Positions 27 through 56,021 are shown, counted from the first letter of the stretch. The stretch is 64,000 nucleotides of DNA from Candidatus Latescibacterota bacterium (GCA_965203805.1 OZ241917.1:1504001-1568000); one strand, 5' to 3'. The notes: generated by a model from the sequence alone, not told the origin. Numbers and translations: made by a program.

Positions 27-78
27 CCTGCCTGCAGCGCAGGGGCACTGCGCAGGCAGGCGTATTCGCGCAGGCAGG
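27..78. repeat. CCTGCCTG..CAGGCAGG hairpin element (27-60, 34 bp) plus the right half of a second one (61-78)
   Basis: Reverse complement of 27-60 differs from the element at 39403-39435 by one extra C; 61-78 ends in CG-CAGGCAGG. Confidence 0.85.
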
Positions 79-101
79 CGCAAAACACATGCGGCCGACC
101 A

Positions 102-623
102 TCAAGTCTGGTAGGAATAGACGACACCGGCGTCAGTGAGAACCCCGGATAACTCGGGCACCGACGGAACCCAGATGAGTTGCATGCGCCATCGTCGGAT
201 AATCTCAGGCATCGCATACGATTCCGAGCCGATGGCTTCGACCGGGTGTCTCGAGACATATTCGTTACTGGGAACCTTGAAGAAATGGCGTTCTTCGAAA
301 ACATACACGTTGGCCTCAAACGCCATTATCTGCCCTTTGTCTTCACTGTTTACGAAGATAAAACAGCTCTTGGCCGGATCAGTCTCGTGCCCCAGGGAAT
401 CAAGCTTGTGCCTGGAGCATTCAGAGTTCCTGACTCTTATTCGATGAATCCCGGGAAACAGGTGGATTGATATCTCGTCGAAATCGCCAACATAGAGCAG
501 GCGATCCGGGATATAGCCTGGTTTGGACCTCTTGGTGCTGCTGCTGAAATCCCGGGTCCGGTAGAATCTCGTCGGATGAAACACATTGCTATCCCGTCGA
601 GGCGTCACTTTGTATAAGAGCAA
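102..623 (-). CDS. Hypothetical protein
   Basis: 173-aa ORF, normal composition, co-oriented with neighbours; no family recognised. Confidence 0.65.
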   Translation of the reverse strand: MLLYKVTPRRDSNVFHPTRFYRTRDFSSSTKRSKPGYIPDRLLYVGDFDEISIHLFPGIHRIRVRNSECSRHKLDSLGHETDPAKSCFIFVNSEDKGQIMAFEANVYVFEERHFFKVPSNEYVSRHPVEAIGSESYAMPEIIRRWRMQLIWVPSVPELSGVLTDAGVVYSYQT

Positions 624-789
624 ATTTGCGACTCCTCGCTTGCGAGAGAATCACACCCGGGACGCAATCTCCCATTCGAAGGGAAAAGCCGAATTTATCG
701 CGAATTCGACAGGGCTTCCAGGAGATGAATTCAGAACGCGCGGACGGTAGTGAGATTAGCTCAATATTCAATGGGAACAGCAAAACGAG

Positions 790-1335
790 TTAGTTCAAAA
801 GCACTGTGCCCGGGACCCGGAGAATCTCGCACGCTTCGAACGCGCCTTCCTCGAATCTCAACCTGATCCCTTCACAGTAATTGCACGAAGGCCCCCACCG
901 CTCGTGGTCCGCGTCGGGCAGGCAGCCGACCGCACTGGCTTCGATAACCCCCCCGTGCGAGATGAACAGCGCCTGGCCGCCGTCCGGGAGCGACCTGGCG
1001 ACGTTGAGGTGGAAATCAGCCAGCGTTTTGGCGAAGTTCGCAACGGCGCCGGCCGGATGTTGATGGATATATGTGGAAAATCCGGCGAATCCTACGTCGA
1101 AGGAGATCTCCGCGTCGGACGGCATGGATGCGAGCAGTTCGACCTGGCGGTCGACCGCAAACCCCATGGCGATAGCCGTTTCGAATGCGCGAGGGACCGG
1201 ACTGGTATAGACCCTGTCGAACGCCGGCATTCCCTCCCCGACGCGCCTGGCGAGGGCGACACCGGCCTGCGAGAGATGTTGTCCGGGCTTTGTCCGCATC
1301 GTGTGTCGTCGATGTTCGATGAATCTGGCTGCCAT
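790..1335 (-). CDS. Histidine phosphatase (phosphoglycerate mutase-like) family protein
   Basis: RH motif (HRRHTMR), LSQAG, VYTSPVPRAFETA, ISHGG; start MAARF chosen because copy 2 shares it. Confidence 0.85.
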   Translation of the reverse strand: MAARFIEHRRHTMRTKPGQHLSQAGVALARRVGEGMPAFDRVYTSPVPRAFETAIAMGFAVDRQVELLASMPSDAEISFDVGFAGFSTYIHQHPAGAVANFAKTLADFHLNVARSLPDGGQALFISHGGVIEASAVGCLPDADHERWGPSCNYCEGIRLRFEEGAFEACEILRVPGTVLLN

Positions 1336-2242
1336 TCGCTCATCCATCAATGAATTTATGGCGTTGGCGTCCTCAGCCTGCATTGCGGAAGAACGCCATC
1401 AGGTCCTCGCGCACCCGCCCGCTTCCGTGGACGACACTGTGGGGTTTGTCAGGATACACACGGAATTCGGCGGGTGGGATCTTCGATGCCAGGTCCTTGC
1501 CCCACTCCACGGGCACTTCCCGGTCCCTGGCGCCGTGAACCACAAGGGTTGGCGCATCTATCCGTCCGCATTCGTCAGTCAGGTCCCTTTCAAGGTACGC
1601 GTTAATTGACCGCAACTGAATCCCGTACCATTCGACACGTTCCTGCACGCTGGACTTCGCGACGAGCGCTTTCACTCGTCCTTCGTATTCCGCCAGCGTT
1701 CCCCGCTCTTCCATCTCGTCCCGTTCCCACAGCACATCCAGGGACAACTCGACACCTTCCGGGCGGTTGTTCCACGCGGCGCCAGCGCCGTCCCTATTAA
1801 GGATTTCCATCTGTCTTTTGACAATCCGGGTCACCGGATCGTCATCCGGCCAGAGATGCGCGGCCGTTCCGGCCAGTGCAAGTGTTCTGATCCGCTCCGG
1901 ATAGCGCGCAGCAAACAGAATTGCAATCGGCCCCCCCGCGGAGGAACCGATCAGGTGTGCGTTCTCGATCTGGAGGTAGTCCAGAAGTTTGACTAAGTCG
2001 CGCGTCTGATTCTCGAGATCATAGCCCGAATCCGGGCGCGACGACAGCCAGCAGCCCCGCCGGTCGTACATCACATACCGGAATTCAGACGCGAAGTCCA
2101 TCTCCCACCCCCACGCACCGCTCGCATCCGCGCGGAGATGCATGTCAATCGAAGGAAATCCCCCGTGTACGAACACGATGACATCGCCCTCGCCCCGAAC
2201 GTCGTAGAACATCGTGAAACCGTTTATGGTAGCGTATGGCAT
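1118..2242. repeat. Direct repeat copy 1 (about 1.12 kb; partner 6083-7206)
   Basis: Colinear with scattered substitutions from GACGGCATGG to the hydrolase start codon. Confidence 0.95.
1373..2242 (-). CDS. Alpha/beta hydrolase
   Basis: FVHGG, YDRRGC, nucleophile elbow GSSAGG, TLVVHGARD, C-terminal His. Confidence 0.92.
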   Translation of the reverse strand: MPYATINGFTMFYDVRGEGDVIVFVHGGFPSIDMHLRADASGAWGWEMDFASEFRYVMYDRRGCWLSSRPDSGYDLENQTRDLVKLLDYLQIENAHLIGSSAGGPIAILFAARYPERIRTLALAGTAAHLWPDDDPVTRIVKRQMEILNRDGAGAAWNNRPEGVELSLDVLWERDEMEERGTLAEYEGRVKALVAKSSVQERVEWYGIQLRSINAYLERDLTDECGRIDAPTLVVHGARDREVPVEWGKDLASKIPPAEFRVYPDKPHSVVHGSGRVREDLMAFFRNAG

Positions 2243-2263
2243 CGGCCTATCCTGGTGAGACCT

Positions 2264-2420
2264 CTACGCTCTTCCTGCTTTCAGGCTCTCTATTATCTTA
2301 CGGTCTGTCTCGAATGCCATGTCCGCCGGCGGATGCTCCAGGGGGAACAGCCCGACCTCGGCCGCGTCGTTACCAGCCACATCGTCGCCATATAACAACG
2401 CGAGGGAGCACATCATATAC
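2264..2420 (-). pseudogene. C-terminal remnant of a Nudix hydrolase
   Basis: Manual translation ...VAGNDAAEVGLFPLEHPPADMAFETDRKIIESLKAGRA*; Nudix box absent; 5' boundary approximate. Confidence 0.5.
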
Positions 2421-2498
2421 GCAGGTACGAATCACGTGTCAAGGTCATTTCCCCGAATGCGCCGCCATATTTGCGGCTGCTTTCCGGCTTCCGGTCAC

Positions 2499-2527
2499 TT
2501 GACGAAGCCGGCCGTTTCTCGTATAAT
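2499..2527 (+). promoter_or_regulatory. Sigma70-type promoter
   Basis: TTGACG-17 nt-TATAAT upstream of the lipoprotein gene. Confidence 0.7.
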
Positions 2528-2578
2528 ACCAAACGGATCCCCGTAAGTTCTGTATTCTTCCGGAGACGGCAAGTCGGA

Positions 2579-2817
2579 CTACATCTGCAATGGCGGATAA
2601 CCGCCGCGGCGGATTGGCGTTTCGCCAACACGCCGACGATCCCGCAATACGTCTCCAGCACCGGTGGATGCTCACGCGAGAATCGTGGCGCAGTGAGATT
2701 CCGGTAAACGGGAGGACATTGATGTTCATTATAATGAAGATGAAAACATCCTTTCACTGGATTGTGACGGCGGCGCTTTTTGCCGTGTTCCTGTCCGGTT
2801 GTGGAAAAGAAGACCCC
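2579..2817 (+). repeat. Diverged 239-bp duplicated leader plus signal-peptide segment (partner 4732-4970)
   Basis: Constant offset of 2153; shared blocks GGATGCTCACGCGAGA, TGAGATTCCGGTA, TTTTGCCGTGTTCCTGTCCG. Confidence 0.85.
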
Positions 2818-3987: not shown

Positions 3988-3997
3988 CGGAAAGCGC

Positions 3998-4026
3998 GGC
4001 GGGAGGGTTGTTCTCGCCCTCCCGCC
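3998..4026 (+). terminator. Hairpin after the lipoprotein gene
   Basis: 10-bp stem GGCGGGAGGG/CCCTCCCGCC, no U-tract. Confidence 0.4.
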
Positions 4027-4293
4027 ATCTGCAACGCGGAAGCACATTGCTGTTGACTGACTTGCACAGGATAGAGCTTCCGCCCGGACTGTCCGCCTGA
4101 TCCCAAAGGCTGGCAGGGCGACCTAACAATTCAAATCCGTCTGGCCCAGCAAGTCCGGGCTCCGGTACGGCATCAACAGAGCCCATGCCGGTACGATGTC
4201 CTTTGGCACGAAAGTGACGGGTTCGGAAGTTGCGTTTCCAGTAAAATCGTGGCTGTATCCAGGTTTGTTTTGCGCTCATCTGGAGACCGCAGG

Positions 4294-4569
4294 ATGCTTT
4301 TTCCCTCCGGACGGATTCATCCGATTGTTCTTTTCGTGCAGGCGATATTCGCGGCCTACCTGGCGATATTTCTGCTTGCCGCCTTCCCCGAACACGATCA
4401 CGATCAACAATGTACTGTCTGCGCCTAGTTCAACAGCCTGAGCATCAGTCTGCCGGCAGTACTGGCGTTGCAACTCTGCTTTTTGTATTTAAGGCAGAGT
4501 TCTTCTTCGTTCCGCTCCCTGCGTTCTTCCCTCCTTCTGCCACAAGGACGCGCGCCTCGTGTGTCCTGA
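4294..4569 (+). pseudogene. DUF2946/CruR-like upstream ORF with internal stop
   Basis: Manual translation: hydrophobic segment, EHDHDQQCTVCA*, C-terminal QGRAPR; TAG at 4426-4428; lies upstream of a TonB receptor. Confidence 0.7.
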
Positions 4570-6300: not shown

Positions 6301-7206
6301 TCGTTCATCCCTAAGCGGGTTTTGTGGTTGGCGTCGTCAGCCTGCATTGCGGAAAAACGCCATCAGGTCCTCGCGCACCCGCCCGCTTCCGTGGACGACG
6401 CTGTGGGGTCTGTCAGGATACACACGGAATTCGGCGCATGGGATCTTCGATGCCAGGTCCTTGCCCCACTCCACGGGCACTTCCCGGTCCCTGGCGCCGT
6501 GGACCACAAGGGTTGGCGCATCTATCCGTCCGCATTCGTCAGTCAGGTCCCTTTCAAGGTACGCGTCAATTGACCGCAACTGAATCCCGTACCATACCGC
6601 GCGCTCCTGAACGCTGGATTTCGCCACAAGCGCTTTCACTCGCTCTTCGTATTCCGCCAGCGTTCCCCGCTCTTCCATCTCGTCCCGTTCCCACAGCACA
6701 TCCAGGGACAACTCGACACCTTCCGGGCGGTTGTTCCACGCGGCGCCAGCGCCGTCCCTATTAAGGATTTCCAACTGTCTTTTGACAATCCGGGTCACCG
6801 GATCGTCATCCGGCCAGAGATGCGCGGCCATACCTGCCAGTGCAAGTGTTCTGACCCGCTCCGGATAGCGCACAGCAGACAGAATTGCAATCGGACCCCC
6901 TGCGGAAGACCCGATCACGTGCGCCTTTTCCACCGAAAGGTGGTCCAGCAATGCGACCAGGTCGCGCACCTGATTGTCCAAATCATAGCCCGACTCCGGG
7001 CGCGAAGACAGCCAGCAGCCTCGCCGGTCGTACATCACATACCGGAATTCAGACGCGAAGTCCATCTCCCACCCCCAAGCACCGCTCGAATCGGCGCGGA
7101 GATGCATATCGAGCGAAGGAAATCCTCCGTGTACGAACACGATGACATCGCCCTCGCCGCGCACGTCGTAAAACATACGAAAGCCGTTAATAGATGCATA
7201 TGGCAT
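6083..7206. repeat. Direct repeat copy 2 (partner 1118-2242)
   Basis: Colinear with 1118-2242. Confidence 0.95.
6337..7206 (-). CDS. Alpha/beta hydrolase, second copy
   Basis: 289 aa, close paralogue of 1373-2242. Confidence 0.92.
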   Translation of the reverse strand: MPYASINGFRMFYDVRGEGDVIVFVHGGFPSLDMHLRADSSGAWGWEMDFASEFRYVMYDRRGCWLSSRPESGYDLDNQVRDLVALLDHLSVEKAHVIGSSAGGPIAILSAVRYPERVRTLALAGMAAHLWPDDDPVTRIVKRQLEILNRDGAGAAWNNRPEGVELSLDVLWERDEMEERGTLAEYEERVKALVAKSSVQERAVWYGIQLRSIDAYLERDLTDECGRIDAPTLVVHGARDREVPVEWGKDLASKIPCAEFRVYPDRPHSVVHGSGRVREDLMAFFRNAG

Positions 7207-8974
7207 GATTACATCTCAGCCTGCCTTGCAAAGCTGACTCTCGTATAACGGGGTTGGCGATACCACAACGAGAGCGGGAGGTGCGCGACAGGGCTACGAC
7301 CGAACGAGCGGAGCCGGTGCACGCCGTTTTGTCAGAAGTTTCTCAGGATGGCACAGCCGACATTTTTTGGCGACGGCGCAGGAAGCGCTGTCACCTTGAT
7401 TGTCCTCTCACCAATAACGAGAATCTACCCGATTTGTACACCCGCCGTCAATTAAATACGCGACTGGCATAGAGTGCGGAAAAGAGATGCTGCAATTGGA
7501 ATCCAGTAAACGGAGATTGGGATATCCGACGGATTAGCTACTTCTGGCTCTCGATCCGCGATCAAAAATGGACGAATTCACAACGGGAAGTTTTACTCTC
7601 GATTACCTTTGGACTTTCTTGGAGGACGCTGCAGATTGTTCGGCTCTACGCGTTCGATTATCGGATCTTGGCTTGTGGTTCGGTTAGCGTCACGATCCCT
7701 CTTGTGCCGTCCACCTCAACTTGGCAACCGTCGACGAACATCTCTAAAATCGAAGGGACGACGTTTACTACAGGCACGCCGCACTCCCGTGCAATCTGGC
7801 TGATATGATTCATCCACATATCCGGGGCGTCCGGTACGATGAGGCCACGCACCCGCAGCAGCACAGAGAACAGAAGCGGCACATGCCAGTTGGTCGATTG
7901 GATCGGCTTCACGAGAACCACCACGTCCCCACTACCAGCGACGTCGTCTCCTTCTTCCAGTGTCTCGATTCGGCGTACGATACCCGTGGTGCGGCCTGGA
8001 CCTGCAGGGCGTCCTCTTATCGCGCTCCCAGCATCTTTTTCGGCTGCATCTGCGTCGGCAGCAACGCGGGTTTTCGGCGAGGATTCTTCCTCCGGTGGCC
8101 TTCCAATGAAGGCCGGCGCAACAAGGCGGTTGGAGTGTTCGTATTCAAGACGCCGTTTCTGCAACAGCCGTCGTCCTGTCGCGATGTCGCCTGTCGCGCC
8201 CATAACTTTCAAATCGTCCACGGTGAAGTACAAGACGTCGTCTATGTCATCGATCAGGCCGGCAGCCAGCAGCACGCCCTGCAAGCTTCGGAAGAGACGC
8301 TTTAACCTCCTGGTCGGAACGTCCGACCGGAGAACACGATGATTCAAAGCCGGTCCCCAGAAAAGAGCCCAGTCGTGAAGCCGCTCAAAACGCGCCAATT
8401 CGGTACGTTGCGAAGCCAAAGTCTCGCGGACCACGGTCACAACTAGCTCGCGCCGCCGGGTTGTCTGTCCTAAAATCCGGCCCACGGATGGGGCTCCTTT
8501 GATTGCATTTCGAACAAGCCTCAGGATATCACACGTGGGGTCGCGGAGAATTTCACAAGGAAACCCGAACTTCCACGGCGGCACCAGGCAAAAGCGCTCG
8601 CAGAAGTCTTCAAGTGCGGCAGCAAACGGGACTTGCATCTCTTTTTTTTGCATGGCACCGATAAACTCGTCCATACTTAGACTCTCGAATCGCTCGCGTT
8701 CTGATTCAAGGAAGCTCTGATTAAGTTACCTATTGGCACGCCATGCAGAAAGTCGTAGAATTGGAGCGTGAGCCGTCGTGTTGTGATTTCTGATGGATCG
8801 ACATAGAACGAGGGGCCCAGGGATGAAACAAATGAGTTTTTCGGATCTGGCGTACAGGACGAAGAAGAAGCAGACGCGCAGGGAACGTTTTCTGAAAGAG
8901 ATGGATGCGGTGTTGCCGTGGGAGATACTGCTTAAATCGATTGAGAGGAAGTATCCGAAACCTGGCAACGGTCG

Positions 8975-9001
8975 CCTGCCTGCCGAGTCGGCGCAGGCAG
9001 G
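8975..9001. repeat. Hairpin element, 27 bp, in frame
   Basis: CCTGCCTGCCGAGTCGGCGCAGGCAGG; removal restores GNGRRP. Confidence 0.92.
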
Positions 9002-9111
9002 TCGTCCGATCGGTGCGGAGGTGATGCTGCGTATCTACTTTATGCAACAATGGTATGGATTGAGCGATCCGGGAATGGAAGACAGTCTCTACGACGTGGA
9101 GTCGATGCGTC

Positions 9112-9130
9112 CCTGCCTGCTGCAGGCAGG
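9112..9130. repeat. Hairpin element, 19 bp, frameshifting
   Basis: CCTGCCTGCTGCAGGCAGG; removal restores ESMRRFAGV. Confidence 0.92.
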
Positions 9131-9666
9131 GCTTTGCGGGTGTGAACATCAACGGCGTACCTGATGAGACGACGATCTGCAAATTCCGTCACTTTCTGGA
9201 GCACCATGGGTTGACGGAAGCGTTGTTTCGGCAAACGAAGCGCTACTTGTCCAGGCGGGGATTGATCGTGAACGAAGGCACGATCGTGGATGCCACGATC
9301 ATTCACGCGCCTTCTTCGACGAAGAACAAGGATCGGAAACGGGATCCTGAAATGGCCAGCACGAAGAAGGGCAACACGTGGCATTTCGGCATGAAGGCGC
9401 ACGTGGGCGCGGATGTGAAGGGACGGGTGCACAGTGTGGTGACCACCCCCGCTTCGGTGCATGATTCGCAGGCGATGGATGCCTGTCTGCACGGAAAAGA
9501 AAAGACCATCTACGGCGACAAGGCCTATGCGGATCAGACGCGAAAAGAACGGGCCGAAGCCAACGACGTGGAATGGCGAGTGCTTCGCAAGGCCCGCCGG
9601 GGCAAGCGGCTCAACTGCGCGGATGTTTCGTTCAACAAGAAGAGCAATCGCACGCGCGCACGGGTC

Positions 9667-9702
9667 CCTGCCTGTGCGTGCTGTCTCACGCACGCAGACA
9701 GG
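9667..9702. repeat. Hairpin element, 36 bp, in frame
   Basis: CCTGCCTGTGCGTGCTGTCTCACGCACGCAGACAGG; removal restores RARVEHPF. Confidence 0.92.
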
Positions 9703-11830
9703 GAACATCCCTTTGGGATCATCAAACACCTGTGGGGCTACCGAAAGGTCAGGTATCGCGGTCTGGCGAAGAATACGGCGCATCTGTTCACCTTGTTTGC
9801 CTTGGCTAACTTCCATATGGCACGTCAGGAACTGGCTACTACATAGGCACCCGTGCCTCCAATTCGGACGCTGGCGGCCAAAATGGCCGGCACCGAGCGC
9901 ATCCGGGGCCGGAATCACCCGTGCAAACCCGAAAGATGACGACCCTCTCAACATAAACAGCCTCCGAAACGACCCATAAGTTACAACTTGCTCATTCCCT
10001 CTGGTTGATCAGAGGTTCCTCAAGCAGTTTCGCCATCTTCTCCGCTTCTGCCATCAATACGTGGGGCAAATAGGGATCCAACGCGGGGTGATGGCCAAGC
10101 GTCAGGTCGTTGACATCGACATTGGGCGTATGTTTGTCCACAAAGTCATTCAACAGGTTCCGGCAGTGATGGGCCAGAAACTGAGAAGGTCCCGAAGTGT
10201 CACCGAGGAGGCTCCACGCCTCCTCCCGTACCCACAGGATTGCGTCAATTGCTCGTTCTAGCGTTCTTTCCTCGTTCTCCAGGCGGACTGCCTTTGTTTC
10301 TACAGCGGTAATCCTCGTGTTCATGCTGTGCAAGAGTTCGGACCGCATTTGAGGTTCGTATTCGACGAGATACTGTTCCAGCTCTTCGGGAGGCATATGT
10401 GGCCATGGGTCTTTTCCCTGAACCAGATAGCGATGTCCGTGAAAGTCCATCTCGGCAACGTACTTTCGGTGGCAAGGCGTCTTGACGGGTCCCACCTCAA
10501 GTGAGCGACTGTACCTCTCTGTAATCAGCTTATCACGGTAGAACGGCAGGGTTACCGTCACATCATCCCTTTTGAATGGGAAATTCCATTTCTTGGGGGA
10601 CCGCCACGTCATATCCGCCAAGTGCGGTGGCAGGTGATGTGGAAAGAAGGCCGGCATTGCCGTGATTGGCCTTACCTGTACGACGTAGATGCTTTCCCCT
10701 ACGACCACCCACTCAACGTCGACACGTGTATCAAAGACCCGGTCGATCTGCAGACCTACCTGAGCGATTTGTCTCGCAATATGGTCGCTCAGTGACGGTT
10801 CGCGCTGCTGATCTGAAGGGATGTCAATATTGTCAATGCCGCTGACACCCGGGATCAAGGCGTTTTTCTTCGTCGAAATGTCTCGACCCATGATATCTCC
10901 CGTATTCCATTCAAACAGGAAACGGTCAACTGGAATTTGGCCGGTAGACGTCATCAGATCGCGAGCCAGACCGAAGGACGACTCCAAAACGAACCGCCAC
11001 GGATTTCCCGTCAGTGGGTCTGCGGTGAACAGTACGCCGGCGCTATCGGCTGGTAGGAGTGACTGAACGAGGACGGCCATAGCGTCCGGCTCAGGCTCAA
11101 TGCCCATTTTCCGTTCGTATTCGAGTGCGAGTGGCACCCAGGCAGCACACCAGCACTTTTTAATCGCATGCAGAAGTTCATCGAGCGCTCGGATGCCAAG
11201 GAAACTCTCATAAACGCCCGCAAAGCTCGCACGGACCGAGTCCTCGTTATTGGTTGAAGAACGCACGGCCAATCCATAGGGAGCATTTGCAAATAGCCCT
11301 TCGGCAAACGGCGCAATCGCGTCGATTAAGGGTCGTGGGAATGAAGCTGCCAGTAGTCTTGGTAGAAATGCCTGATAATTCACAACACGTGCAGAATGTG
11401 TCAGACCCCTGGAACACTGAATGAGTCTTCGTACATGATTAGAAAGGTCGGATCGTGCAAGAAACAGGTTAAGTGCGTTCCGGGTGATTATAAATCCTGG
11501 AGGCACGTGGAATCCGTGTTCAATGGTCTTGCCAAGATTTGCCGATTTTGCGCCGACTAAGGAAGATTTCAGCCCAGGTTGAAGTTGGATGACCAGCTTA
11601 CCCGAATGAGAATTTCGAGGCATATTTTCGCACCGTTCCTTTCCACCGCCCTGACACAAAAAAGGATGCGCACAGGACGACATAATCGTGAGGTAAGTTT
11701 ATCTCACGGGTTATATCAGCCTATCCGCACCCTTGAGATCATCAAAAGTGCTATGGACGGCAGGATTTTATTGTTGGTGTAATATAGGAAAAACGCCCCG
11801 GCACGTCAAATGTAGTACAGGGCGTTGTTA

Positions 11831-12025: not shown

Positions 12026-12946
12026 TCAAACGTTCTCCTCGTTGGTTCCCGAAAATATCCTTTGTGCTTCCCGTGGCAGCTCGCAGACATGCACCAGGAA
12101 GGCCATCGCTCGTTCGACGTTTTCCGCCGGAAACCGGTATCGATAGTGATTTCCGACGGCCCTCGCGGCCCTGCTGAACAACCTTTGGATCGCGAACAGC
12201 GACTCCCGAACGTCGTCATAATCGGATCCGGCGTATGTGCGCTCGAACTCACGCCAGTCCTCGGGCTCGAGGTGCTTCTCCAGATCCCTGCCTTCGCTTC
12301 CCAGCGATCTCTCAAACCCCTTCGTGACGCCAATGTACCAACCGAGCATCAGGACGAGATCCTGCCGCAGGCGTTCGACGTGGCACTTCAGGAGGGGAAG
12401 CTTTCGTCGCCACAAAGTCTTCGGGATATGCGAGCCGAGCGTGAAGCAGAACGTGTTGCAGCAGTCGTCGTACCACTTCTGCGTCGGTTCCGTGATGAAA
12501 TGGCTTCGTTCACTGGGATTCGGGAGATCGGCAGTGAGACCGTCCTTGTCCAGCAGAACCCGGGTGAGGCTGTCGAATGGGCGCCTCTCCAGCATGTCGA
12601 CATGCAAGAACGCCATATCGGTTCGATTGCCGTCGGTAAACTGGACGTTGTAGGTATAGCGACCGTCTCGTAGCCCGGGTCGGTAGACCTGATCCTCTAC
12701 TTTCTCTACCAGCAACGGTACTCCAAAGTGCGGAACGACGCGACTCTCTTCTCTGTAGGGTTCGACATCGGTGACGAAGAATGCAATATCGTAGTCCTGG
12801 AAGATGTCCCTCTGGGCGTTCGGGTTGGCACGAGACCCATTCATCACAACCGCACGAATGCGGTCGTCGGACCGGGCGAATTCGACAATCAGCGCCAGCA
12901 CTTCCTCTTCGGTTTGCGTCCTCAAGTGATCCTCTTCACGTCTCAA
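12026..12946 (-). CDS. Aminoglycoside 6-adenylyltransferase (AadK/ANT(6)) family protein
   Basis: IRAVVMNGSRANP..DIFQDYDI, FTDGNRTD, VLLDKD; activity not demonstrated. Confidence 0.88.
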   Translation of the reverse strand: MRREEDHLRTQTEEEVLALIVEFARSDDRIRAVVMNGSRANPNAQRDIFQDYDIAFFVTDVEPYREESRVVPHFGVPLLVEKVEDQVYRPGLRDGRYTYNVQFTDGNRTDMAFLHVDMLERRPFDSLTRVLLDKDGLTADLPNPSERSHFITEPTQKWYDDCCNTFCFTLGSHIPKTLWRRKLPLLKCHVERLRQDLVLMLGWYIGVTKGFERSLGSEGRDLEKHLEPEDWREFERTYAGSDYDDVRESLFAIQRLFSRAARAVGNHYRYRFPAENVERAMAFLVHVCELPREAQRIFSGTNEENV

Positions 12947-14290: not shown

Positions 14291-15850
14291 ATGTTTAGAA
14301 GGAGTGCTCCTTCAAGTGCGCCGGATCTGTTTAGCAGTATTGAGTCGCATTTCACAGGTCGGAAGCGGAACCGTCTAAATGATCCGTTGTGCTGGCATAA
14401 TCTGTTTTACGAGCACATCACGTCAAAGGTGGATGAGGATAACTTCCGTGAGGTGTATGCCCCTGGCGTAGGGCGTCCCAATGCGCCGATTCGTCAGTTG
14501 GTGTCGATGATGATCATCAAGGAGGGTTTTGGGTGGAGCGATGCCCAACTTTTCGATCAATGTCGGTTCAACATCCTGGTGATGGGGGCATTGGGGTTGG
14601 TGAATCTTACGGATGAAGTGCCTGTCGAGTCCACGTATTATCTGTTCAAGCAGGCGTTGTATGCGTATCACCTGAAGACCGGTCGCGATCTGATCGGCGA
14701 GACCTTTGTCAGGGTAACAAAGACGCAGGCCAAGGCCTTTGGTGTGTTGGGTCAGCAAATTCGAATGGACAGCCTGCCTGCGCCGAGTTCTGTTCGGCAG
14801 GCAGGTAAGTTGATCGGCTCGAACATTGCGCTTTGTTGTCGGTTGCAGTTGGTGGTGGGTTGCGTACAAGGGTTCTGGAGGTCGTTGGACAAGGCCCAAA
14901 AGGGACGATCATCGGCAACGGATCAGCAGGTTTTGGAGGCTCTGATCCAGGGGAAGCCCCATCAGGTTGTCTACCGTCTCACCAGCGCTGAAAAAGGCGA
15001 GAAGCTACAGGAATTGGGGCTGTTGTTGAGCAGGCTACAAGCGACCTATACCGAGAAAGACAGCGACCAGTACGATCTGATCGTGCGTGTTTTTGGGGAC
15101 CACTATACGGTTTCATCTTCCCCCAAGGAGGTGCTGCCCAAGCCGCATGAAGCGATCTGTTCATCCTCGTTGCAGTCTGCCCATGATGAAGAGGCGGCCT
15201 TTCGTAAGAAAGGGAAGGACAAGGTGAAAGGGTATAGTGTCAACCTCACCGAGACCTGTGATGAGGAGGGCCTCAATTTGATCACGGACGTTGACGTCAA
15301 ACCCGCGACGCGTCCCGACAATGCGTTTGTCCAAGGCGCCATACAGCGGACGCAACAGGTGGTGGACGACGTCGTCGAAGTGTCAATGGATGGGGCCTAT
15401 CATGATCGATCCAACGCCGAGTATGCCGACGAAAACAACAAGCAATTCTATTACAGTGGCCTGCAAGGAAAGCCAGGGCGTTTCAGCTATGAACGCACAA
15501 CAGACGGTGTCAAGGTCACCGATCAACAAACCGGAGAGGTTCACATCGCCCAAGAATACAAACCGGGAAAATACAAAATCACCATCGATGGCAAACCCCG
15601 ATACTTTAAGGAACAACATATCGACAGTTACCTCAATCGCAAACAGATTGAAGCCCTGCCTGACCCCATCAGAAACCGACGCAATAACGTCGAAGCCAGC
15701 ATCTTTCAGTTGAGCTATTACACCAAGGATGGCAAGACGCGCTATCGCGGAGAAAGGCCACACCAACGGTGGGCCTGGTGTCGTGGCCTATGGATCAATC
15801 TGGTTCGGATCAAGAACTACCTCGCTACACCCCCGATGCTCACCGCATAA
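14291..15850 (+). CDS. DDE transposase carrying an 11-aa hairpin-derived insertion
   Basis: GRP motif, RMDS, MDGAY, RNNVEAS, RYRG. Confidence 0.9.
   Translation: MFRRSAPSSAPDLFSSIESHFTGRKRNRLNDPLCWHNLFYEHITSKVDEDNFREVYAPGVGRPNAPIRQLVSMMIIKEGFGWSDAQLFDQCRFNILVMGALGLVNLTDEVPVESTYYLFKQALYAYHLKTGRDLIGETFVRVTKTQAKAFGVLGQQIRMDSLPAPSSVRQAGKLIGSNIALCCRLQLVVGCVQGFWRSLDKAQKGRSSATDQQVLEALIQGKPHQVVYRLTSAEKGEKLQELGLLLSRLQATYTEKDSDQYDLIVRVFGDHYTVSSSPKEVLPKPHEAICSSSLQSAHDEEAAFRKKGKDKVKGYSVNLTETCDEEGLNLITDVDVKPATRPDNAFVQGAIQRTQQVVDDVVEVSMDGAYHDRSNAEYADENNKQFYYSGLQGKPGRFSYERTTDGVKVTDQQTGEVHIAQEYKPGKYKITIDGKPRYFKEQHIDSYLNRKQIEALPDPIRNRRNNVEASIFQLSYYTKDGKTRYRGERPHQRWAWCRGLWINLVRIKNYLATPPMLTA
14773..14805. repeat. 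Hairpin element, 33 bp, in frame
   Basis: CCTGCCTGCGCCGAGTTCTGTTCGGCAGGCAGG; removal restores RMDSKLIGSNI. Confidence 0.92.
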
Positions 15851-34479: not shown

Positions 34480-35150
34480 TGCGCTGAGCCTGTTAAAGGG
34501 TCGGGGAATGGATACGAAGCGCGGCATTTCGACAAGCTCAATGAACGCGCTTCTTACCGCCAGGGAAAAGGCGCACGGGTCTCGGATGCATCTCACGGAG
34601 GGTTGCCGGCCAGCATGTCACCCTAGACGACGTACAAAATCCGTATCGATACGTGGTCATTGCTTGCGTTGAGCCTGTCGAAACGGCTTGTCGAAATGCC
34701 CGTATTACAGAGTCCCATCGACATGCACGCCGCCTCGGCAAGACCTTCTGGGCGCTAACGTGCCGCCTTTAAGGCTCGGGACACGTTCAAATCACGCTGG
34801 TGTGAACCGATGCCGCAGCAGATCCTTCGTCAGCCGGCCTGCCAATGATGCTCCGGCAGGCCCGACCGCTTCTTCAGGATGACAGTTTGGGCTAACGAAT
34901 GACAGATTCATTTCAACGATGGCTATTGCAAAACATGTCATTCTGAGCGGAGCGAAGAATCTCCCGTCTTCTCAGCTTGACGTGCGGCGGAAGCCTTCAC
35001 CGGCCCATATGCGCGGAGGCCTGGTCTCCCTGCCGGCGTCCTCACAGTCCGGGCGCACGTCGGCAGACAGGAATGTCTGCCTGCCTGCGCAGCGAACCGC
35101 GCTGCAGGCAGGCCCCACCCTTTCAACGGCTTCTTCAGAATGACAGTTCA
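34480..35150. repeat. Intergenic cluster of REP-like repeats
   Basis: TTCGACA(A/G)GCTCA types, GTCATTCTGAGCGGAGCGAAGAATCT (34937), TTCTTCAG(G/A)ATGACAGTT twice, GGCAGACA-GGAA-TGTCTGCC hairpin. Confidence 0.7.
35080..35112. repeat. Hairpin element, 33 bp, inside a REP-like palindrome
   Basis: CCTGCCTGCGCAGCGAACCGCGCTGCAGGCAGG. Confidence 0.9.
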
Positions 35151-39363: not shown

Positions 39364-39456
39364 CCTGCCTGCGCAGCGTACTGCCTGCCTGTGCGGAGCA
39401 CGCCTGCCTGCGCAGTGCCCTGCGCTGCAGGCAGGCAGACAGGCGCTGCAGGCAGG
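39364..39456. repeat. Three nested hairpin elements (33+27+33 bp) inside a GTAG-type REP
   Basis: Outer 39364-39456, middle 39384-39443, inner 39403-39435. Confidence 0.9.
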
Positions 39457-46413: not shown

Positions 46414-46460
46414 CCAATATGCGGCGCGACGTCATCCAGCCTCTATTAATCTAAGGCACA

Positions 46461-47680: not shown

Positions 47681-47683
47681 CGG

Positions 47684-51595: not shown

Positions 51596-51680
51596 TACCG
51601 GTAGTTGGGATCCGTTGACCTGTCTATGCCGGCGCGCTACGATCCGGGTTTCCGGAGATCGCGCAGGAATCGCCCCGGTC

Positions 51681-52772: not shown

Positions 52773-52916
52773 ACCAATGTGTTATGCCTCGTTTTACTTC
52801 CCCACGACAAGAAGAATGTGGCTGCTGGCGCCCAGGAGAGAACGGTCTCGATCCGTTCGCTGTCCAGCAGATACAATCGGCGAATGCGCCACGGTTTGAC
52901 TCGTTTGGAGGCCATA

Positions 52917-53309
52917 TCAGACCTGAACATCGGCATAGAAGTTGATGATATTTCGATCCGGATCGCGGAACCACACGGACCGACGGCCCCACGGCTGGGT
53001 TGCGGGAGGTTTGACGATCTCGATGTTCATGGCCTTCAATCGTCTGAATTCACGGTCAACGTCGTCTACTTCAAATTCGATCGTATAGCTACCGGTACCA
53101 GCACCTTTTAGGCATCCAGGCGCCATTTTCTCCGTGCGTTCCGAGGAGTAGATGGACAGAACCGCACCCTCCGTCGGGATGATCTCGAAGATATTCGCCT
53201 CTTCAGGCTCGAGTTCCAGGATTTCCCTGTAGAACGCGCAGAGACGAGGCACGTTTTCTGTCACAATGCAAATGCCATTGAACCGCATGGTTAGCCCCCG
53301 CAAGTCCAC
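52917..53309 (-). CDS. VOC family protein
   Basis: PWGRRSVWFRDPD. Confidence 0.9.
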   Translation of the reverse strand: MDLRGLTMRFNGICIVTENVPRLCAFYREILELEPEEANIFEIIPTEGAVLSIYSSERTEKMAPGCLKGAGTGSYTIEFEVDDVDREFRRLKAMNIEIVKPPATQPWGRRSVWFRDPDRNIINFYADVQV

Positions 53310-53372
53310 GTGGGATTATCACTCGCACGTCGCCACCGTCGCACATGCCCCCGCATAAGGAAAACATGATGG

Positions 53373-54197
53373 TCACGTGTTAATCTCCGGTCCCCAATCG
53401 GCGGCGAAGTCATTGGCCGAACTGTTGGATAGATTGACCAGGTTCCGACCGTCAAAATCGATCCGGTAGATCTGCTGGCGGCCGTCTTCGTGGCCTGTAA
53501 AGACGATCTGTCGGCCGGTCGGAGACCAGGAGAGTTCTCCTACGCCCGTTACCCGGTCAGTGAGGCGTCTGGGATCCGATCCGTCAGCCTTCATGACGTA
53601 GACCTGCCGTTCACCGGCGCGGTCAGAGTTGAAGGCAATCCACTTTCCGTCCGGCGACCAGACAGGGTCACCGTCGTCGCTATCTGAAACGTGCAGGCGT
53701 CGCTGCGCGCTTCCGTCCGGGTCCATCACGTAAATCTGGGAGCGTCCATCACGGTCCGTGGTGAACGCGATCTGAGAGCCGTCGGGAGAAAAGGTGGATT
53801 CCAGTTCGCACGCCGAATGATTCGTCAGGTTCCTCTGGTGGGAGCCGTCGCTGTCCATCGTGTAGATTTCCACATTGTCGTCTCGATCGGTGGTAAAGAT
53901 GATCGTCTCCCCGTCCGGCGACCAGTGCGGCCGGAGATCCGGTGCCGCATTCCGGGTCAGTCGCTCCGGCCGGCTCCCGTCCGCGTCGATCAGGTAGATT
54001 TCCCCTTTCCCGTGACGCCTGTCGCAATACGCGATCCGCGTGCCGTCCGGCGACCATCGCGGATGATCTTCCTCCCATTCCGCGGTACGGGTGATATTCG
54101 TCTGATCACTTCCATCCGGATTCATTACGAAGAGATCGAAGGTCCCATCCCTATCGCTGACAAACGTGATCTTCGATGAATTCATGACGGCGCCCAC
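53373..54197 (-). CDS. TolB-like PD40-repeat beta-propeller
   Basis: Repeated WSPDG..IAF..DRDG. Confidence 0.92.
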   Translation of the reverse strand: MGAVMNSSKITFVSDRDGTFDLFVMNPDGSDQTNITRTAEWEEDHPRWSPDGTRIAYCDRRHGKGEIYLIDADGSRPERLTRNAAPDLRPHWSPDGETIIFTTDRDDNVEIYTMDSDGSHQRNLTNHSACELESTFSPDGSQIAFTTDRDGRSQIYVMDPDGSAQRRLHVSDSDDGDPVWSPDGKWIAFNSDRAGERQVYVMKADGSDPRRLTDRVTGVGELSWSPTGRQIVFTGHEDGRQQIYRIDFDGRNLVNLSNSSANDFAADWGPEINT

Positions 54198-54218
54198 GTC
54201 GACTGGTTGGGTTTTGGG

Positions 54219-55605
54219 GAGATATTGTCAAATGTTGTGGATGGCGGCGAGCGTATCCTGATGGATCAGGCGGCGGCTTTGACGTCTCCATCCTCGAATT
54301 CGACGCCCTGGACCACGAGTTCAATGAGCTTGTGACTGTGTAATCGTTGCCAGTGTTTCTGGGCTTGGTCGGCCAGTTTGTAAACCATCATCAACGTGGC
54401 GTTTCGAGAGCCGCATCCTTTGGTCTGGCGCGTGCGGTGGCGAACGGTGCTGAAAGTGGATTCAATGGGATTGGTGGACCGGAGGTGTCGCCAGTGAGCG
54501 GCCGGGAAATCGTAAAAGGTGAACAGCACGTCCTTGTCTTTTTCCAGGCACGCACACGCTTTGGGGTATTTGGCTTCATAAAGGGACAGAAAGTCCTCGT
54601 AAGCGGCCAGGGCATCCTCTCTGGTGGGTGAGAGATACATCTCGTGGAGGCGCCCTTTGGCCTGCGCCTGGACCGTTTTGGGGAGGTTATCCAGCACGTT
54701 GGCACTCTTGTGCACCCAGCAGCGCTGATGGCTTGTCTCGGGGAAGACTTCCTCCAGCGCGGCCCAGAAACCCAGGCCGCCATCGCCAATGGCCAGGGCA
54801 GGCGCTTCTTTCAACCCTCTTCTTTTCAGGTCCCTGAGCACACCTTCCCAGGACAGCTTGCTTTCACGATGTCCATCCTCGATCGCCAACAGTTCCTTAC
54901 GGCCATCCTTCGTGGCACCGATGATGACTAAGACGCAGGGCCGGTCCGGTTCCAGTCGCACCTGGAAATAGATGCCATCGGCCCAGACATACACGTAGTG
55001 TTTATCTGAAAGATCCCGTTGTTGCCACGCTCGATATTCTTCGTCCCAGATCTGCTTGAGCCGAACGATGTTGGCCGGTGACAGCCCCACCGCATTCTCA
55101 CCCAAAATCGCAGAAAGTGCCTCGGGGAAGGACGACGTCGAGACCCCCTTGAGATACAGTGCCGGAATCAACGCATCGATAGAGGGTGCCCGACGCATAT
55201 ATCTCGGCAAAATGGCTGAGCTGAATGTCTTTCCCTTACGCCTGTCGTGCACACGCGGCTGCCGGATCTCAAGGTGTCCTACGCCCGTGATCAGTTCCCG
55301 TGGCTTGTGAGATCCATTCCTGACCACTTGCCGGTGACCACGTTCATCCTTCTCCGCTTGCAACCCTTCAACGTAGGCGTCCACTTCAAACTCCAACGCG
55401 GCTTGCAGCATCCGCCTGGCCCCAACACGAATCAGATCTTCCAGGCTCAACGTCACTTCATCTTTGACTATCGTCTCAACTTCGGAGGCCGTATATTGTC
55501 TCATCGAGCGTATCCTTCCTCCCTCGTCTGAGGGATCTCGGGTTAATAGTGATACTATAGGATACGCTCTTTTTTTACCTCATCCACAACTTTTGAATAT
55601 AACTC
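54219..55605 (-). mobile_element. IS256-family insertion sequence, 1387 bp
   Basis: Imperfect TIRs GAGATATTGTCAAATGTTGTGGATG / CATCCACAACTTTTGAATATAACTC; 8-bp TSD GTTTTGGG. Confidence 0.95.
54266..55504 (-). CDS. IS256 transposase, intact
   Basis: WADG, IGDG, QRCWVH, STNPIES. Confidence 0.95.
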   Translation of the reverse strand: MRQYTASEVETIVKDEVTLSLEDLIRVGARRMLQAALEFEVDAYVEGLQAEKDERGHRQVVRNGSHKPRELITGVGHLEIRQPRVHDRRKGKTFSSAILPRYMRRAPSIDALIPALYLKGVSTSSFPEALSAILGENAVGLSPANIVRLKQIWDEEYRAWQQRDLSDKHYVYVWADGIYFQVRLEPDRPCVLVIIGATKDGRKELLAIEDGHRESKLSWEGVLRDLKRRGLKEAPALAIGDGGLGFWAALEEVFPETSHQRCWVHKSANVLDNLPKTVQAQAKGRLHEMYLSPTREDALAAYEDFLSLYEAKYPKACACLEKDKDVLFTFYDFPAAHWRHLRSTNPIESTFSTVRHRTRQTKGCGSRNATLMMVYKLADQAQKHWQRLHSHKLIELVVQGVEFEDGDVKAAA

Positions 55606-55994
55606 GTTTTGGGTTCAAGCTGATTAGTGAACGCTGATAGCTGCTCTTGCTCCGCTTCCTCCCCTCTCCCCTTGGGAGATGGGGCTGGGGGGTGAGGGTC
55701 ACCACTTCGCACCAGACGAATCCAATGCCGAATCGAGACATGATGCAATAAGAACGTGATATAAATTATCGCAACACAGGAATCTATGGTGGATTATTCA
55801 CGAAAACCCTGGTTTTGATGTATAACGGGTTGTTTTTCAATAGATTCTGCGAAATATTACGCGTCAGCATTTCATGAATTACGAAATTGATTGGTCAGGG
55901 AGATGTTTTGTAGCCCACCGAGGTAAGGATCCATCGGTTTGGCCCGGAATCGTGAGCATTTGTCCTGTTCTTGGTCTTTATCCTGTTCATCCTG

Positions 55995-56021
55995 CCTGCC
56001 TCGCCTGCTTCAGCAGGCAGG
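55995..56021. repeat. Hairpin element variant, 27 bp, inside an ATCCTG-type repeat
   Basis: CCTGCCTCGCCTGCTTCAGCAGGCAGG; absent from the homologous repeat at 46461-46519. Confidence 0.88.

Follow-up and report, generated by a model that had tools for sequence, protein, structure and literature searches.

Very small palindromic hairpin elements, probably mobile and of the REP/SDR kind, in a Candidatus Latescibacterota genome

The 64,000-nt stretch of DNA analysed here (the window) and the genome around it carry a family of non-coding palindromic hairpins, only 19-37 nt long, that are probably mobile elements of the REP/SDR kind. They are read as a new, untagged REP/SDR-like family mobilised in trans, a reading in which the SDR4-6 repeats were compared by description only, and no published description of a CCTGYCTG/CAGRCAGG hairpin family was found.

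The defining part is a terminal stem of 8 bp in which CCTGYCTG pairs with CAGRCAGG. An abundant version of 19-20 nt consists of both arms and a 3-4-nt loop and nothing more, and in most bigger copies an inner stem-loop of variable sequence is added along with a 2-nt bulge, which reads CG in 37/48 oriented contexts. The search pattern CCTGYCTG-N(3-25)-CAGRCAGG has eight matches in the window, compared with a mean of 0.00 in 100 shuffles. All ten copies noticed in an earlier reading of the sequence alone were located, together with the half copy at 61-78, and are given below with their hosts (strand is indicated where one applies).

27..60, read on the minus strand: 34-nt copy of the CG-bulge type (DNA fold -14.3 kcal/mol, z -2.9).
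61..78: half copy made up of 10 nt and one CAGGCAGG arm.
8793..9846, plus strand: IS5-family transposase gene (DUF772 + DDE_Tnp_1), host of three copies.
8975..9001: 27-nt copy, in frame, adding 9 residues, target G|T; absent in 5/5 aligned homologues.
9112..9130: 19-nt minimal copy (arms and 3-nt loop) that frameshifts the transposase, target C|G.
9667..9702: 36-nt copy at target C|G, in frame, adding 12 residues; one of its arms is CAGACAGG.
14773..14805: 33-nt copy, in frame, within a 519-aa DUF772 transposase ORF (14291-15850).
35080..35112: 33-nt copy at a hot spot in a short host repeat (GGTGGGG|CRGACAYTCCTGTC, reversed here).
39364..39456: nested triple, outer copy 33 nt, middle 27 nt (39384-39443), inner 33 nt (39403-39435).
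54413..54414: empty G|C site in an IS256/Mutator-family transposase gene (54266-55504).
55991..56021: insertion of 27 nt (55995-56021) within a stretch of 31 nt, the target having had one CCTG beforehand.

Within the window the targets are without exception transposase genes, short host repeats or other copies, and the CG bulge is present in 8 of the 10 copies, both as first read. The half copy probably represents the right-hand end of an outer element that has lost its left part, and a right-hand remnant like it also trails complete copies at other loci of the genome. In the IS5 gene, the 27-nt and 36-nt copies appear as clean insertions of 9 and 12 residues when compared with a 92%-identical homologue of 313 aa, and the host reading on either side of the 19-nt copy is continuous sequence in the homologues. 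The 36-nt copy is absent in 4/5 homologues and present in P0001, which carries in-frame copies in a set differing from that of the window. This IS5 is found at 5 dispersed sites of the genome with the identical three copies at each, one of them frame-shifting. The nested triple, whose middle and inner insertions are both at G|C, lies upstream of a xylose-isomerase-like TIM-barrel gene; it is identical in the related species G001 and not alignable in G012. The stretch at 55991..56021 lies 30 nt downstream of a 2-phosphosulpholactate-phosphatase-like gene, and the orthologous site in G012 is empty.

DNA folding gave the hairpin with its bulge for every window copy on either strand, with z between -2.5 and -4.8. 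The inner stems (18 distinct) hold on average 2.99 Watson-Crick pairs versus 0.96 in shuffles, and when 25 distinct variants of 33 nt were compared, 14 had C-G and 9 had A-T at pair 12-24, while pair 14-22 occurs as five standard pair types. Inner stem pairing is thus maintained via compensatory changes, and this co-variation bears out the earlier remark that the inner stem varies in sequence and stays paired. The preference for lengths divisible by 3, first noted for 8 of the 10 window copies, is real and moderate genome-wide (149/227 copies, 52/77 variants and 18/29 subfamilies; one-sided binomial p = 0.0014). Since pairing rather than sequence is conserved and both arms are needed, the form that moves or is recognised would probably be a folded single strand or a cruciform, which a trans-acting protein reading the conserved arms may handle.

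The search of the whole genome returned 282 exact copies (19-55 nt, mode 33 nt) and 21 for an arms-swapped control, placing the family far above control. Among 132 contexts, independent by our own clustering of flanks, repeats, IS genes or the element itself account for 112, unique intergenic DNA for 12 and single-copy genes for 8; for comparison, a repeated flank is present at 49 of 600 random positions and at 115 of 500 random intergenic positions. The bias toward repeated and mobile DNA is therefore strong, as had been proposed, whereas the stricter claim that only selfish DNA is entered fails genome-wide on those 12 and 8 contexts. Intergenic contexts number 104/132 by a crude in-house model of gene calls, versus 18% of the genome, and the distribution is REP-like since it is mainly intergenic; extragenic copies are frequently found just 3' of genes. 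Genic copies are either tolerated, in frame or near gene ends, or located in IS genes. ImuB-like and TolC-like genes are among the single-copy hosts, with copies in frame; a flippase and further ordinary genes also host copies, and many of the copies within transposase genes are in frame. The repeat bias is best explained by three processes acting together, namely preferential targeting of a small number of GC-rich sites within those repeats, hitch-hiking as a host repeat or IS multiplies, and selection that would remove insertions elsewhere.

Movement was evident from the comparison of filled and empty sites. A clean empty paralogue exists in the same genome for 18 filled sites, and the hot spot in the short host repeat is empty 39 times and filled 13 times, by at least 5 variants. 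Between species, the copy after the gene RAYT1 in G000 is missing in G001, and one orthologous site displays empty, simple and nested states across G012, G001 and G000. Empty and filled alleles were also sought in other samples, and a contig of run X2 holds an extra 33-nt copy at the G|C of 54413..54414 inside the transposase gene, placed by the aligner as a 31-nt insert with a 2-nt overlap. Insertion is precise and repeated, into one another and at recurring hot spots, and insertions vary between sister species and between samples; the precision asserted in the sequence-only reading is thus upheld by the clean IS5 insertions as well as by the empty paralogues and orthologous sites. Copies shared by G000 and G001 show 0 differences over about 157 nt while their flanks are 78-95% identical, which speaks against purely selfish decay and suggests constraint or homogenisation, neither of them expected of mere junk.

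Insertion mostly prefers the gap between G and C. This was the target in 17 of the 18 sites with a clean empty paralogue and in 48/84 independent flank contexts, versus a GC dinucleotide frequency of 0.085, so the earlier impression of no obvious target consensus had to be given up. The flank logo, drawn from 48 contexts oriented so that the bulge is 5', has G at position -1 in 41 contexts and C at -2 in 28; past the opposite end, C stands at +1 in 37 contexts and T at +2 in none. At verified sites other than G|C the target is G|T (twice), C|G (twice) or A|T, and apart from the G|C itself targets share hardly any sequence. Because G+CCTG..CAGG+C equals GC+CTG..CAG+GC, the G|C sites can equally be written as a 2-bp GC duplication; hence the claim that no target site is duplicated stands wherever the verified target is G|T, C|G or A|T and cannot be asserted at G|C. 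At nearly all junctions an overlap of 2-4 nt between element ends and target is possible.

No copy has any coding capacity, and no arms 200-6000 bp apart in the genome enclose a transposase with extended matching ends, the only two weak end pairs of that search matching at 13-14/20 bases. Consequently the copies are moved in trans, in agreement with the minimal trans-mobilised element first proposed. The best guess for the chemistry, though less likely than not, is an HUH-type single-strand transposase (RAYT/IS200-like). HUH-type single-strand chemistry gives duplication-free insertion beside a short specific sequence. The genome has two HUH genes, both RAYT-like, and Y1_Tnp matches were obtained for G000, for G001, G011, G015 and G016, which are the four other relatives holding over 70 copies, and for the five genomes of other phyla that were searched (G041-G045). 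Within the genus, five genomes with a RAYT1 orthologue hold 166, 185, 74, 26 and 16 copies and seven with no Y1_Tnp match hold 31, 20, 8, 3, 2, 1 and 0, an association drawn from related genomes that is not a statistical test. Against it, G012 (98% complete, 2 contigs) has 20 copies yet no Y1_Tnp match, and G017 and G038 have many IS200-like genes and zero copies. Moreover, a separate GTAG-type REP borders both RAYT1 and the second RAYT domain, in the case of RAYT1 as GAGGGCA-GGGA-TGCCCTC hairpins of which one carries GTAG, while CCTGYCTG-type hairpins were found at 0/4 RAYT1 orthologues (loci of 3.5-4 kb) and in the flanks of 1/12 HUH loci in relatives and 2/21 in other phyla. Orientation in IS200-type elements is biased with the direction of replication, whereas no such bias was seen on either replichore here (10 vs 12 on one and 13 vs 15 on the other, Fisher p = 1). 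The HUH analogy of the sequence-only reading remains only a lead. A search of the genus turned up no Y2 (IS91-like) gene.

In relatives, the family is present in 22/41 genomes with 0-185 copies each (reversed-pattern control, 0-1), and the five genomes of other phyla hold 168, 99, 49, 23 and 2 copies (controls, 0). The latter were reached via loci titled Brocadiaceae, Thermodesulfobacteriota (two) and Lentisphaerae/Lentisphaeria, and as the cross-phylum occurrence rests on MAG binning, the same 8-bp arms appear common to several bacterial phyla in the sense that the MAGs are titled accordingly. Several sister species have 0-3 copies only, which speaks against an essential role.

Three other routes of movement are each unlikely. 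The first is a double-stranded miniature transposon reduced to its terminal inverted repeats (TIRs) and moved by a DDE transposase, with 7-bp inverted ends CTGYCTG..CAGRCAG and a duplicated GC dinucleotide. The formal equivalence at G|C in 17/18 pairs and 48/84 contexts, the 2-nt overlap of the X2 copy, the fit of symmetric ends and random orientation to a symmetric transposase and the abundance of several DDE families in the genome all suit it; however, the five verified sites outside G|C and the other 36/84 contexts cannot be duplications, no long element with these ends beyond the two weak pairs was found, a duplex of 19-37 bp is very short for synapsing two ends, and recognition of inverted ends has no need of conserved inner pairing. 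The second, of similarly low probability, is site-specific recombination by a serine or tyrosine recombinase that would read a cruciform or folded arms and exchange at a shared central GC, on the model of integron attC or CTX-phage sites. Folded integron attC sites have bulged bases and a variable terminal loop, which those of the hairpins may recall; abutted, the arms form a perfect 16-bp palindrome centred on GC, the preferred target, and such a core predicts the observed insertion in either orientation. Yet apart from G|C the targets share almost nothing, which is unusual for these recombinases, verified non-GC targets exist, no candidate gene is linked, and the attC R-box was absent in copies inspected by eye. 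The third route, about as doubtful, involves no dedicated enzyme: copies would spread by template switching or gene conversion while DNA is replicated or repaired, with a stalled 3' end pairing through 1-4 nt of microhomology with a hairpin at another place, copying it and returning. The near-universal 2-4 nt overlaps, a verified insertion that used a 4-nt CCTG overlap pre-existing in the target, the identity of shared copies between species despite diverged flanks, as conversion would give, and the nested insertions and half copies expected of recombination among copies are consistent with it, but it leaves unexplained the same 8-bp arms in several phyla, the range of 0-185 copies among sister species with similar genomes and the very exact boundaries.

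It is quite improbable that the hairpin is a functional host motif (a REP-like structural, terminator or protein-binding hairpin) under selection, with mobility minor. Its mainly extragenic position, often directly 3' of genes, shared copies that are unchanged over about 157 nt versus 5-22% flank divergence and the arms conserved across phyla would suit such a motif, whereas the 0-3 copies of several sister species, the copies nested in each other or inside genes and IS elements, an orientation relative to the nearest gene of 25 same and 25 opposite, hairpins with no T-run and 0 Rfam matches at or above the gathering threshold (64-kb window, both strands) argue against it. The sequence-only reading had also offered a host mechanism by which insertion sequences would be marked or disabled, and this is scarcely credible: 17/28 CDS contexts lie in repeated, IS-like genes versus 18/500 random CDS positions and frame-shifting 19-20-nt copies mostly fall within transposase genes, but selection alone would leave that enrichment, 104/132 contexts are intergenic, ImuB-like, TolC-like, flippase and other ordinary genes are hit as well, many transposase copies are in frame and the triply hit IS5 persists at five dispersed places.

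The placement among REP/SDR-like elements comes from comparison with known systems. The account of REPs in PMC3733652 describes imperfect GC-rich palindromes of 20-40 nt in hundreds of copies, mainly extragenic and patchy among relatives, some of them in frame inside genes, including error-prone polymerase genes, or inserted in other small palindromes; REPINs, grouped here with REPs and their RAYT (TnpA-REP) genes, are treated in PMC3116915. The hairpin family resembles them in size, copy number (282 imperfect palindromes that fold), extragenic bias, patchiness, in-frame genic copies and insertion of palindrome in palindrome. It differs in that no unpaired GTAG/CGTC stands at one end (A at -2 and T at -3 occur 3 times each in the 48-context logo), the RAYT-like genes adjoin a separate GTAG-type REP, the 8-bp arms are common to several phyla while REP sequences are usually lineage-specific, and the family is often self-nested and has a 19-nt minimal form.

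The SDR4-6 of Nostocaceae, reportedly treated in Elhai et al. 2008 (Genome Res 18:1484), are said to be repeats of 21-27 nt argued to be mobile, to share a predicted hairpin and to occur within other repeats; we know of no enzyme for them. They are likewise very small hairpin repeats inside other repeats with a short palindromic insertion site, but by description they have another sequence and another phylum, whereas the hairpins here reach 37 nt, target G|C and keep their arms across several phyla. According to the section concerned of PMC5861425, SDRs target HIP1 and are confined to Nostocaceae.

MITEs share with the family non-autonomy, inverted ends and mobilisation in trans, but they have a parent IS, which the search for arm pairs 200-6000 bp apart did not find for hairpins of 19-37 nt in which duplication does not appear obligatory. 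IS200/IS605 elements use imperfect hairpins as recognition elements and insert without duplication at a short fixed sequence, and Helitrons insert between A and T. Elements of the IS200/IS605 type and Helitron-like elements have two unlike ends, are full elements that encode their own function or derivatives of such elements, and are strand-biased relative to replication. The imperfect hairpin and apparently duplication-free insertion, here between G and C, are common ground, whereas the family is one symmetric hairpin and, unlike IS200/IS605-derived (PATE-like) elements, shows no replication-linked orientation. A fixed target of 4-5 nt on the 5' side only is a further trait of such derived elements; here the 5' flank favours C at -2 (28/48) and G at -1 (41/48), and the 3' flank also favours C at +1 (37/48). 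Rickettsia palindromic elements, about 100-150 bp in size, are palindromic repeats with in-frame genic copies as well, but they are bigger and CGTC-tagged, and the hairpin copies are mostly intergenic. The pertinent part of PMC3733652 places the Rickettsia elements in frame in functional genes, with a CGTC tag, and gives MITEs as 70-300 bp with TIRs of 15-30 bp.

On reading the sequence of the window, all ten copies claimed by the sequence-only reading were found to be present, and the pattern CCTGYCTG-N(3-25)-CAGRCAGG was matched 8 times there, whereas 100 shuffles that preserve dinucleotides gave 0.00 matches on average. The copies lie as follows, G|T denoting an insertion between G and T.

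27-60, 34-nt copy
61-78, half copy
8975-9001, 27-nt copy in the IS5 gene, target G|T
9112-9130, 19-nt copy in the IS5 gene, target C|G
9667-9702, 36-nt copy in the IS5 gene, target C|G
14773-14805, 33-nt copy
35080-35112, 33-nt copy in a host-repeat hot spot
39364-39456, triple nest of 33-, 27- and 33-nt copies
55991/55995-56021, hairpin copy, 27 nt inserted

As originally noted, the 2-nt CG bulge is found in eight of the ten copies and a length divisible by three likewise in eight, and all copies fold as bulged hairpins on both strands (z -2.5 to -4.8 compared with shuffles).

At 18 filled sites of G000, the closed genome to which the window belongs (5.87 Mb, 59% GC), a clean empty paralogue exists in the same genome and the difference between the two is exactly the element. 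The short host repeat GGTGGGG|CRGACAYTCCTGTC has 60 matches, the marked site being empty in 39, occupied by a hairpin in 13 (at least 5 variants) and otherwise in 8; this site is an insertion hot spot and holds the window copy at 35080. Orthologous places were also compared with two related genomes, G001 and G012. A hairpin located 10 nt past the RAYT-like gene of G000 is absent from G001, where the gene is 92% identical, and the site downstream of the phosphatase-like gene of the window is empty in G012, the window having 27 nt inserted with one CCTG already in the target. One orthologous site is empty in G012, holds a simple 33-nt copy in G001 and, in G000, that same copy with another of 33 nt inserted into it; a neighbouring site differs between G001 and G000 by the same kind of nesting. 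In a contig of X2, a sequencing run of another sample, a hairpin sits in a copy of the IS256-family transposase gene of the window, at 54413|54414 (G|C), a site that is empty in the window.

The comparison with other samples was made with contigs, which give no allele frequencies. Contigs of four runs from three studies end inside hairpins, as they do in repeats (stops at 39391/39429 and 55967/56025), their covered parts matching the window, and one joint in run X1 goes from 55965 to 56021. Since these contigs match and hairpin copies are also seen as translated insertions in independent database proteins, the copies are not assembly artefacts. The same two runs, X1 and X2, join 54210 straight to 55606 with 8 shared letters; window 54211-55605 is an IS256/Mutator-family insertion sequence (transposase 54266-55504, PF00872) and is polymorphic as an insertion, with 8 bp duplicated.

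The absence of an obvious target consensus, as first proposed, proved wrong, because G|C recurs at 17 of the 18 clean filled/empty paralogue pairs, at both nesting steps, at the X2 insertion, and in the flanks of 84 independent contexts (G at -1 in 63, C at +1 in 58, G|C in 48, for a GC dinucleotide frequency of 0.085). The companion claim of insertion without target-site duplication holds at the verified G|T, C|G and A|T sites but cannot be proved at G|C sites, where G+CCTG...CAGG+C and GC+CTG...CAG+GC read identically. In the IS5 gene, the verified sites of all three copies are incompatible with duplication (G|T, C|G and C|G), as are a further verified G|T site with CCTG overlap and an A|T site in the loop of another REP. 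We conclude that insertion strongly prefers G|C and that duplication is not obligatory. Targets consisting of foldable stem-loops in general were rejected, only particular hot spots being hairpins: the mean fold of reconstructed empty sites was -6.97 kcal/mol, a value not significantly different from the -6.14 of intergenic G|C sites drawn at random (p = 0.088), while CDS sites gave -7.09.

In the whole of G000, 282 exact copies were found (inner part 0-45 nt) against 21 with the arms in swapped order; merging reduced them to 227 loci and flank similarity to 132 independent contexts, this clustering being our own and approximate. Genes were called with our own codon-usage model, likewise approximate (4169 genes, 82% coding), which places 104 of the 132 contexts between genes and 28 within coding sequence. 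The orientation of the G000 copies showed no bias with respect to replication direction or to the nearest gene. The contexts are distributed as follows.

Placement of the 132 contexts in G000
Intergenic repeats of at least 100 nt: 40
Nested in or abutting another hairpin copy: 36
Short host repeats (flanking 14-mer present at least 3 times): 20
Repeated, IS-like genes: 16
Unique intergenic DNA: 12
Single-copy genes: 8

At random, a repeated 150-nt flank was met at 49 of 600 positions overall and at 115 of 500 intergenic ones, and a flanking 14-mer present at least 3 times at 30 of 300 intergenic positions; for coding sequence, a repeated flank was found in 17 of the 28 contexts as opposed to 18 of 500 random coding positions. 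Since the context counts exceed those of random positions, the bias of insertions to repeated DNA is real and large. It is not exclusive, and the 12 contexts in unique intergenic DNA and 8 in single-copy genes contradict the earlier restriction to selfish DNA. The coding-sequence copies listed have as hosts, among others, a Y-family polymerase resembling ImuB, with 30 nt in frame at residue 448, a TolC-like protein of the outer membrane, entered after the signal peptide, a polysaccharide flippase (at the C-terminus), a DUF6785 membrane protein (at the N-terminus) and a GH20b-like protein. Such positions are tolerant, as expected if selection purges harmful insertions. A published study already describes REPs in genes, including error-prone polymerase genes, and inside other small palindromes (PMC3733652).

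Of the 227 hairpin loci, 57 fall in a 240-kb region of the chromosome (G000:C1:3240000-3480000) where coding density is lower, 72% by our own gene calls. In this region the long spacers between genes are pieced together from several small hairpin repeats, and one 31-nt hairpin variant is almost restricted to it (32 of 36 matches inside).

The IS5 of the window (8793-9846) carries three hairpins, and it was compared with protein homologues because no DNA homologues were found in five relatives. The 27-nt copy adds 9 residues missing from all five close homologues aligned, while the 36-nt copy adds 12 residues missing from four of the five and present in the fifth, P0001, which has an additional 9-residue hairpin-coded insertion elsewhere in the protein. 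The 19-nt copy causes a frameshift, the host reading on either side matching the continuous sequence of the homologues. This IS5 occurs at five dispersed places in G000, all with the same three hairpins, the frame-shifting one included, and no copy without them was found in that genome; therefore the IS5 spread, or was spread, after acquiring them. A host device for disabling IS elements, as had been suggested, is ill-suited to such a history.

The conservation of structure rather than sequence, as first proposed, stood for the inner part; the arms are conserved as sequence. In 69 distinct variants with an inner part of at least 9 nt, the mean number of contiguous inner Watson-Crick pairs was 2.99, compared with 0.96 in same-letter shuffles, and at least 3 such pairs were present in 42 of them, with 18 distinct inner stems. 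Covariation was judged by explicit pair counts: in 25 distinct 33-nt variants, the outer 8 pairs are invariant except at position 5 (C-G 20, T-G 2, C-A 3), inner pair 12-24 is C-G in 14 and A-T in 9, and inner pair 14-22 takes five standard pair types. Pairing above shuffles together with these changes of pair type thus indicates that structure is what is conserved in the inner part. The CCAAG/CGCGG subfamily stands outside the common register and folds in a slipped one.

Of 227 simple copies, 149 have a length that is a multiple of three, as do 52 of 77 variants and 18 of 29 subfamilies (p = 0.0014); 19, 31 and 37 nt are common lengths too. This bias is moderate and may come both from the canonical 8+2+5+5+5+8 build and from survival inside genes. 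Read letter by letter, the arms appear free of stop codons in every frame, so that copies of such lengths would pass through reading frames.

The family was found in 22 of 41 relatives at 0-185 copies each (0-1 for the reversed-pattern control), the same 22 genomes being recovered by a wider scan, and copy number is patchy even inside the genus of G000. A one-genome-per-species scan gave well-formed copies in loci titled Thermodesulfobacteriota, Lentisphaerae, Kiritimatiellae, Verrucomicrobia and Brocadiaceae, among others, a cross-phylum occurrence that holds only if the binning of metagenome-assembled genomes is correct. Whole-genome counts in five genomes titled as other phyla were 168, 99, 49, 23 and 2, with 0 in the controls. 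Because forms of 19-20 nt, that is two arms and a 3-4-nt loop, are dominant in two of these five among the places listed, the arms alone seem to be a sufficient unit.

Old selfish insertions are expected to decay along with their surroundings. At the three loci sampled, the copies common to G000 and G001 (the triple nest of 93 nt plus two outer copies of 33 nt, together about 157 nt) have 0 differences for flanks that are 78-95% identical. G001 (locus L150) has the triple nest of 39364-39456 without any change, the DNA on either side differing at many positions, and the 396-nt alignment around it is 90.4% identical with the nest included. This identity may come from selection on the hairpin, from homogenisation between copies, or from correction of the palindrome with itself as template.

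As to the mobilising enzyme, our tentative best guess, which we put well short of an even chance, is an HUH single-strand transposase. Enzymes of this chemistry recognise imperfect hairpins and leave no scar when they insert next to a short fixed sequence. Two Pfam Y1_Tnp matches were obtained in G000, one in a 203-aa RAYT-like gene (RAYT1) and the other as a RAYT-like domain in a 1220-aa DUF1156/methyltransferase-like ORF. Both loci are flanked by another hairpin family, of the GAGGGCA-GGGA-TGCCCTC kind, with GTAG preceding one copy, which is the classical REP/RAYT arrangement; CCTGYCTG hairpins insert into the loops of this REP. Within the genus, the five genomes with a RAYT1 orthologue have 166, 185, 74, 26 and 16 hairpin copies and the seven without a Y1_Tnp match have 31, 20, 8, 3, 2, 1 and 0, an association that rests on genomes related to each other; G012 has 20 copies and no Y1_Tnp match. 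A RAYT acting as hairpin-flanked master gene was rejected for the orthologues and for the other phyla: no hairpins were found in the fetched flanks of four RAYT1 orthologues, and hairpins occur at only 2 of 21 HUH loci in the other-phylum genomes. A RAYT-like gene lies within 8 kb in 3 of about 111 pattern-hit loci, but each time it is flanked by its own GTAG-type repeats. Neither the tag nor the RAYT flanking that characterises REP/RAYT systems was found for the hairpin family. A parent IS with these ends was likewise rejected, no long element with hairpin ends being found in G000 by scans for extended complementarity and for 2-bp direct flanks, which gave only hairpin pairs or two weak chance pairs. 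An IS91-like Y2 transposase was dismissed, its gene having no match in G000 or the genus.

The RAYT-like gene of 203 aa, at G000:C1:4533300-4534500, has GAGGGCA-type hairpins in inverted orientation on its flanks and lies within an array of repeats of about 230 nt each, and GAGGGCA-N(2-6)-TGCCCTC occurs 29 times in G000. In the 1220-aa ORF (G000:C1:4547022-4550684), Y1_Tnp (Pfam positions 40-121) is in frame, with DUF1156 at the start and a weak D12-class methyltransferase match. Y1_Tnp also lies inside open frames of 1111-1441 aa in G008, G011 (two), G016 and G045, which may reflect the fusion of two domains or a mobile insertion, in frame, that several genomes have conserved.

Known relatives in kind are REPs and REPINs, the in-frame Rickettsia elements and the small dispersed repeats (SDRs) of Nostocaceae, of 21-27 nt. 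From these the hairpin family differs in having no tag and no link to a flanking RAYT, in having the same 8-bp arms in several phyla, in its 19-nt minimal form, and in its heavy nesting and preference for G|C. No description of it was found in the literature by phylum name, properties or arm sequences, and Rfam gave no match to the window. Of the initial interpretation, a trans-mobilised minimal element with a strong repeat bias is supported, but exclusivity for selfish DNA and an anti-IS role for the host are not. A wider reading, possible but on the whole rather unlikely, is that these are enzyme-orphan, cross-phylum hairpin transposons of 19-37 nt whose conserved 8-bp stem would be the whole recognition signal, and which would insert scarlessly at G|C, with landing that would favour repeats and the elements themselves (hyperparasitism) and copies that would be kept letter-perfect by active copying or correction. 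If so, the mover would be a conserved protein that has so far escaped recognition as a transposase, and the hairpins the smallest well-documented mobile DNA elements outside cyanobacterial SDRs. To our knowledge, ideas on how REP-like and SDR-like repeats a few dozen bases long multiply still rest largely on inference, and for the smallest of them an enzyme has yet to be proposed. The system is unusually clean: boundaries are exact, and one orthologous site can be met empty, singly filled or nested; copy number ranges over 0-185 in sister species, several of which have assemblies that are closed or nearly so, and the arms recur in unrelated phyla. Therefore the search for the mobilising protein becomes a tractable comparative problem. 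In practice, real proteins gain 9-12 residues in frame from the hairpins, which also cause short-read contigs to break and can lead gene calling and IS annotation of metagenome-assembled genomes astray.

Two further features were observed in the window. A minus-strand gene (12026-12946), with the IS5 (8793-9846) on one side and a DUF772 transposase gene (14291-15850) on the other, matches the streptomycin adenylyltransferase family in full length (PF04439, E 3e-83). Two 289-aa alpha/beta-hydrolase genes, also on the minus strand (1373-2242 and 6337-7206), are 5 kb apart with near-identical Pfam profiles and are probably a local duplication.
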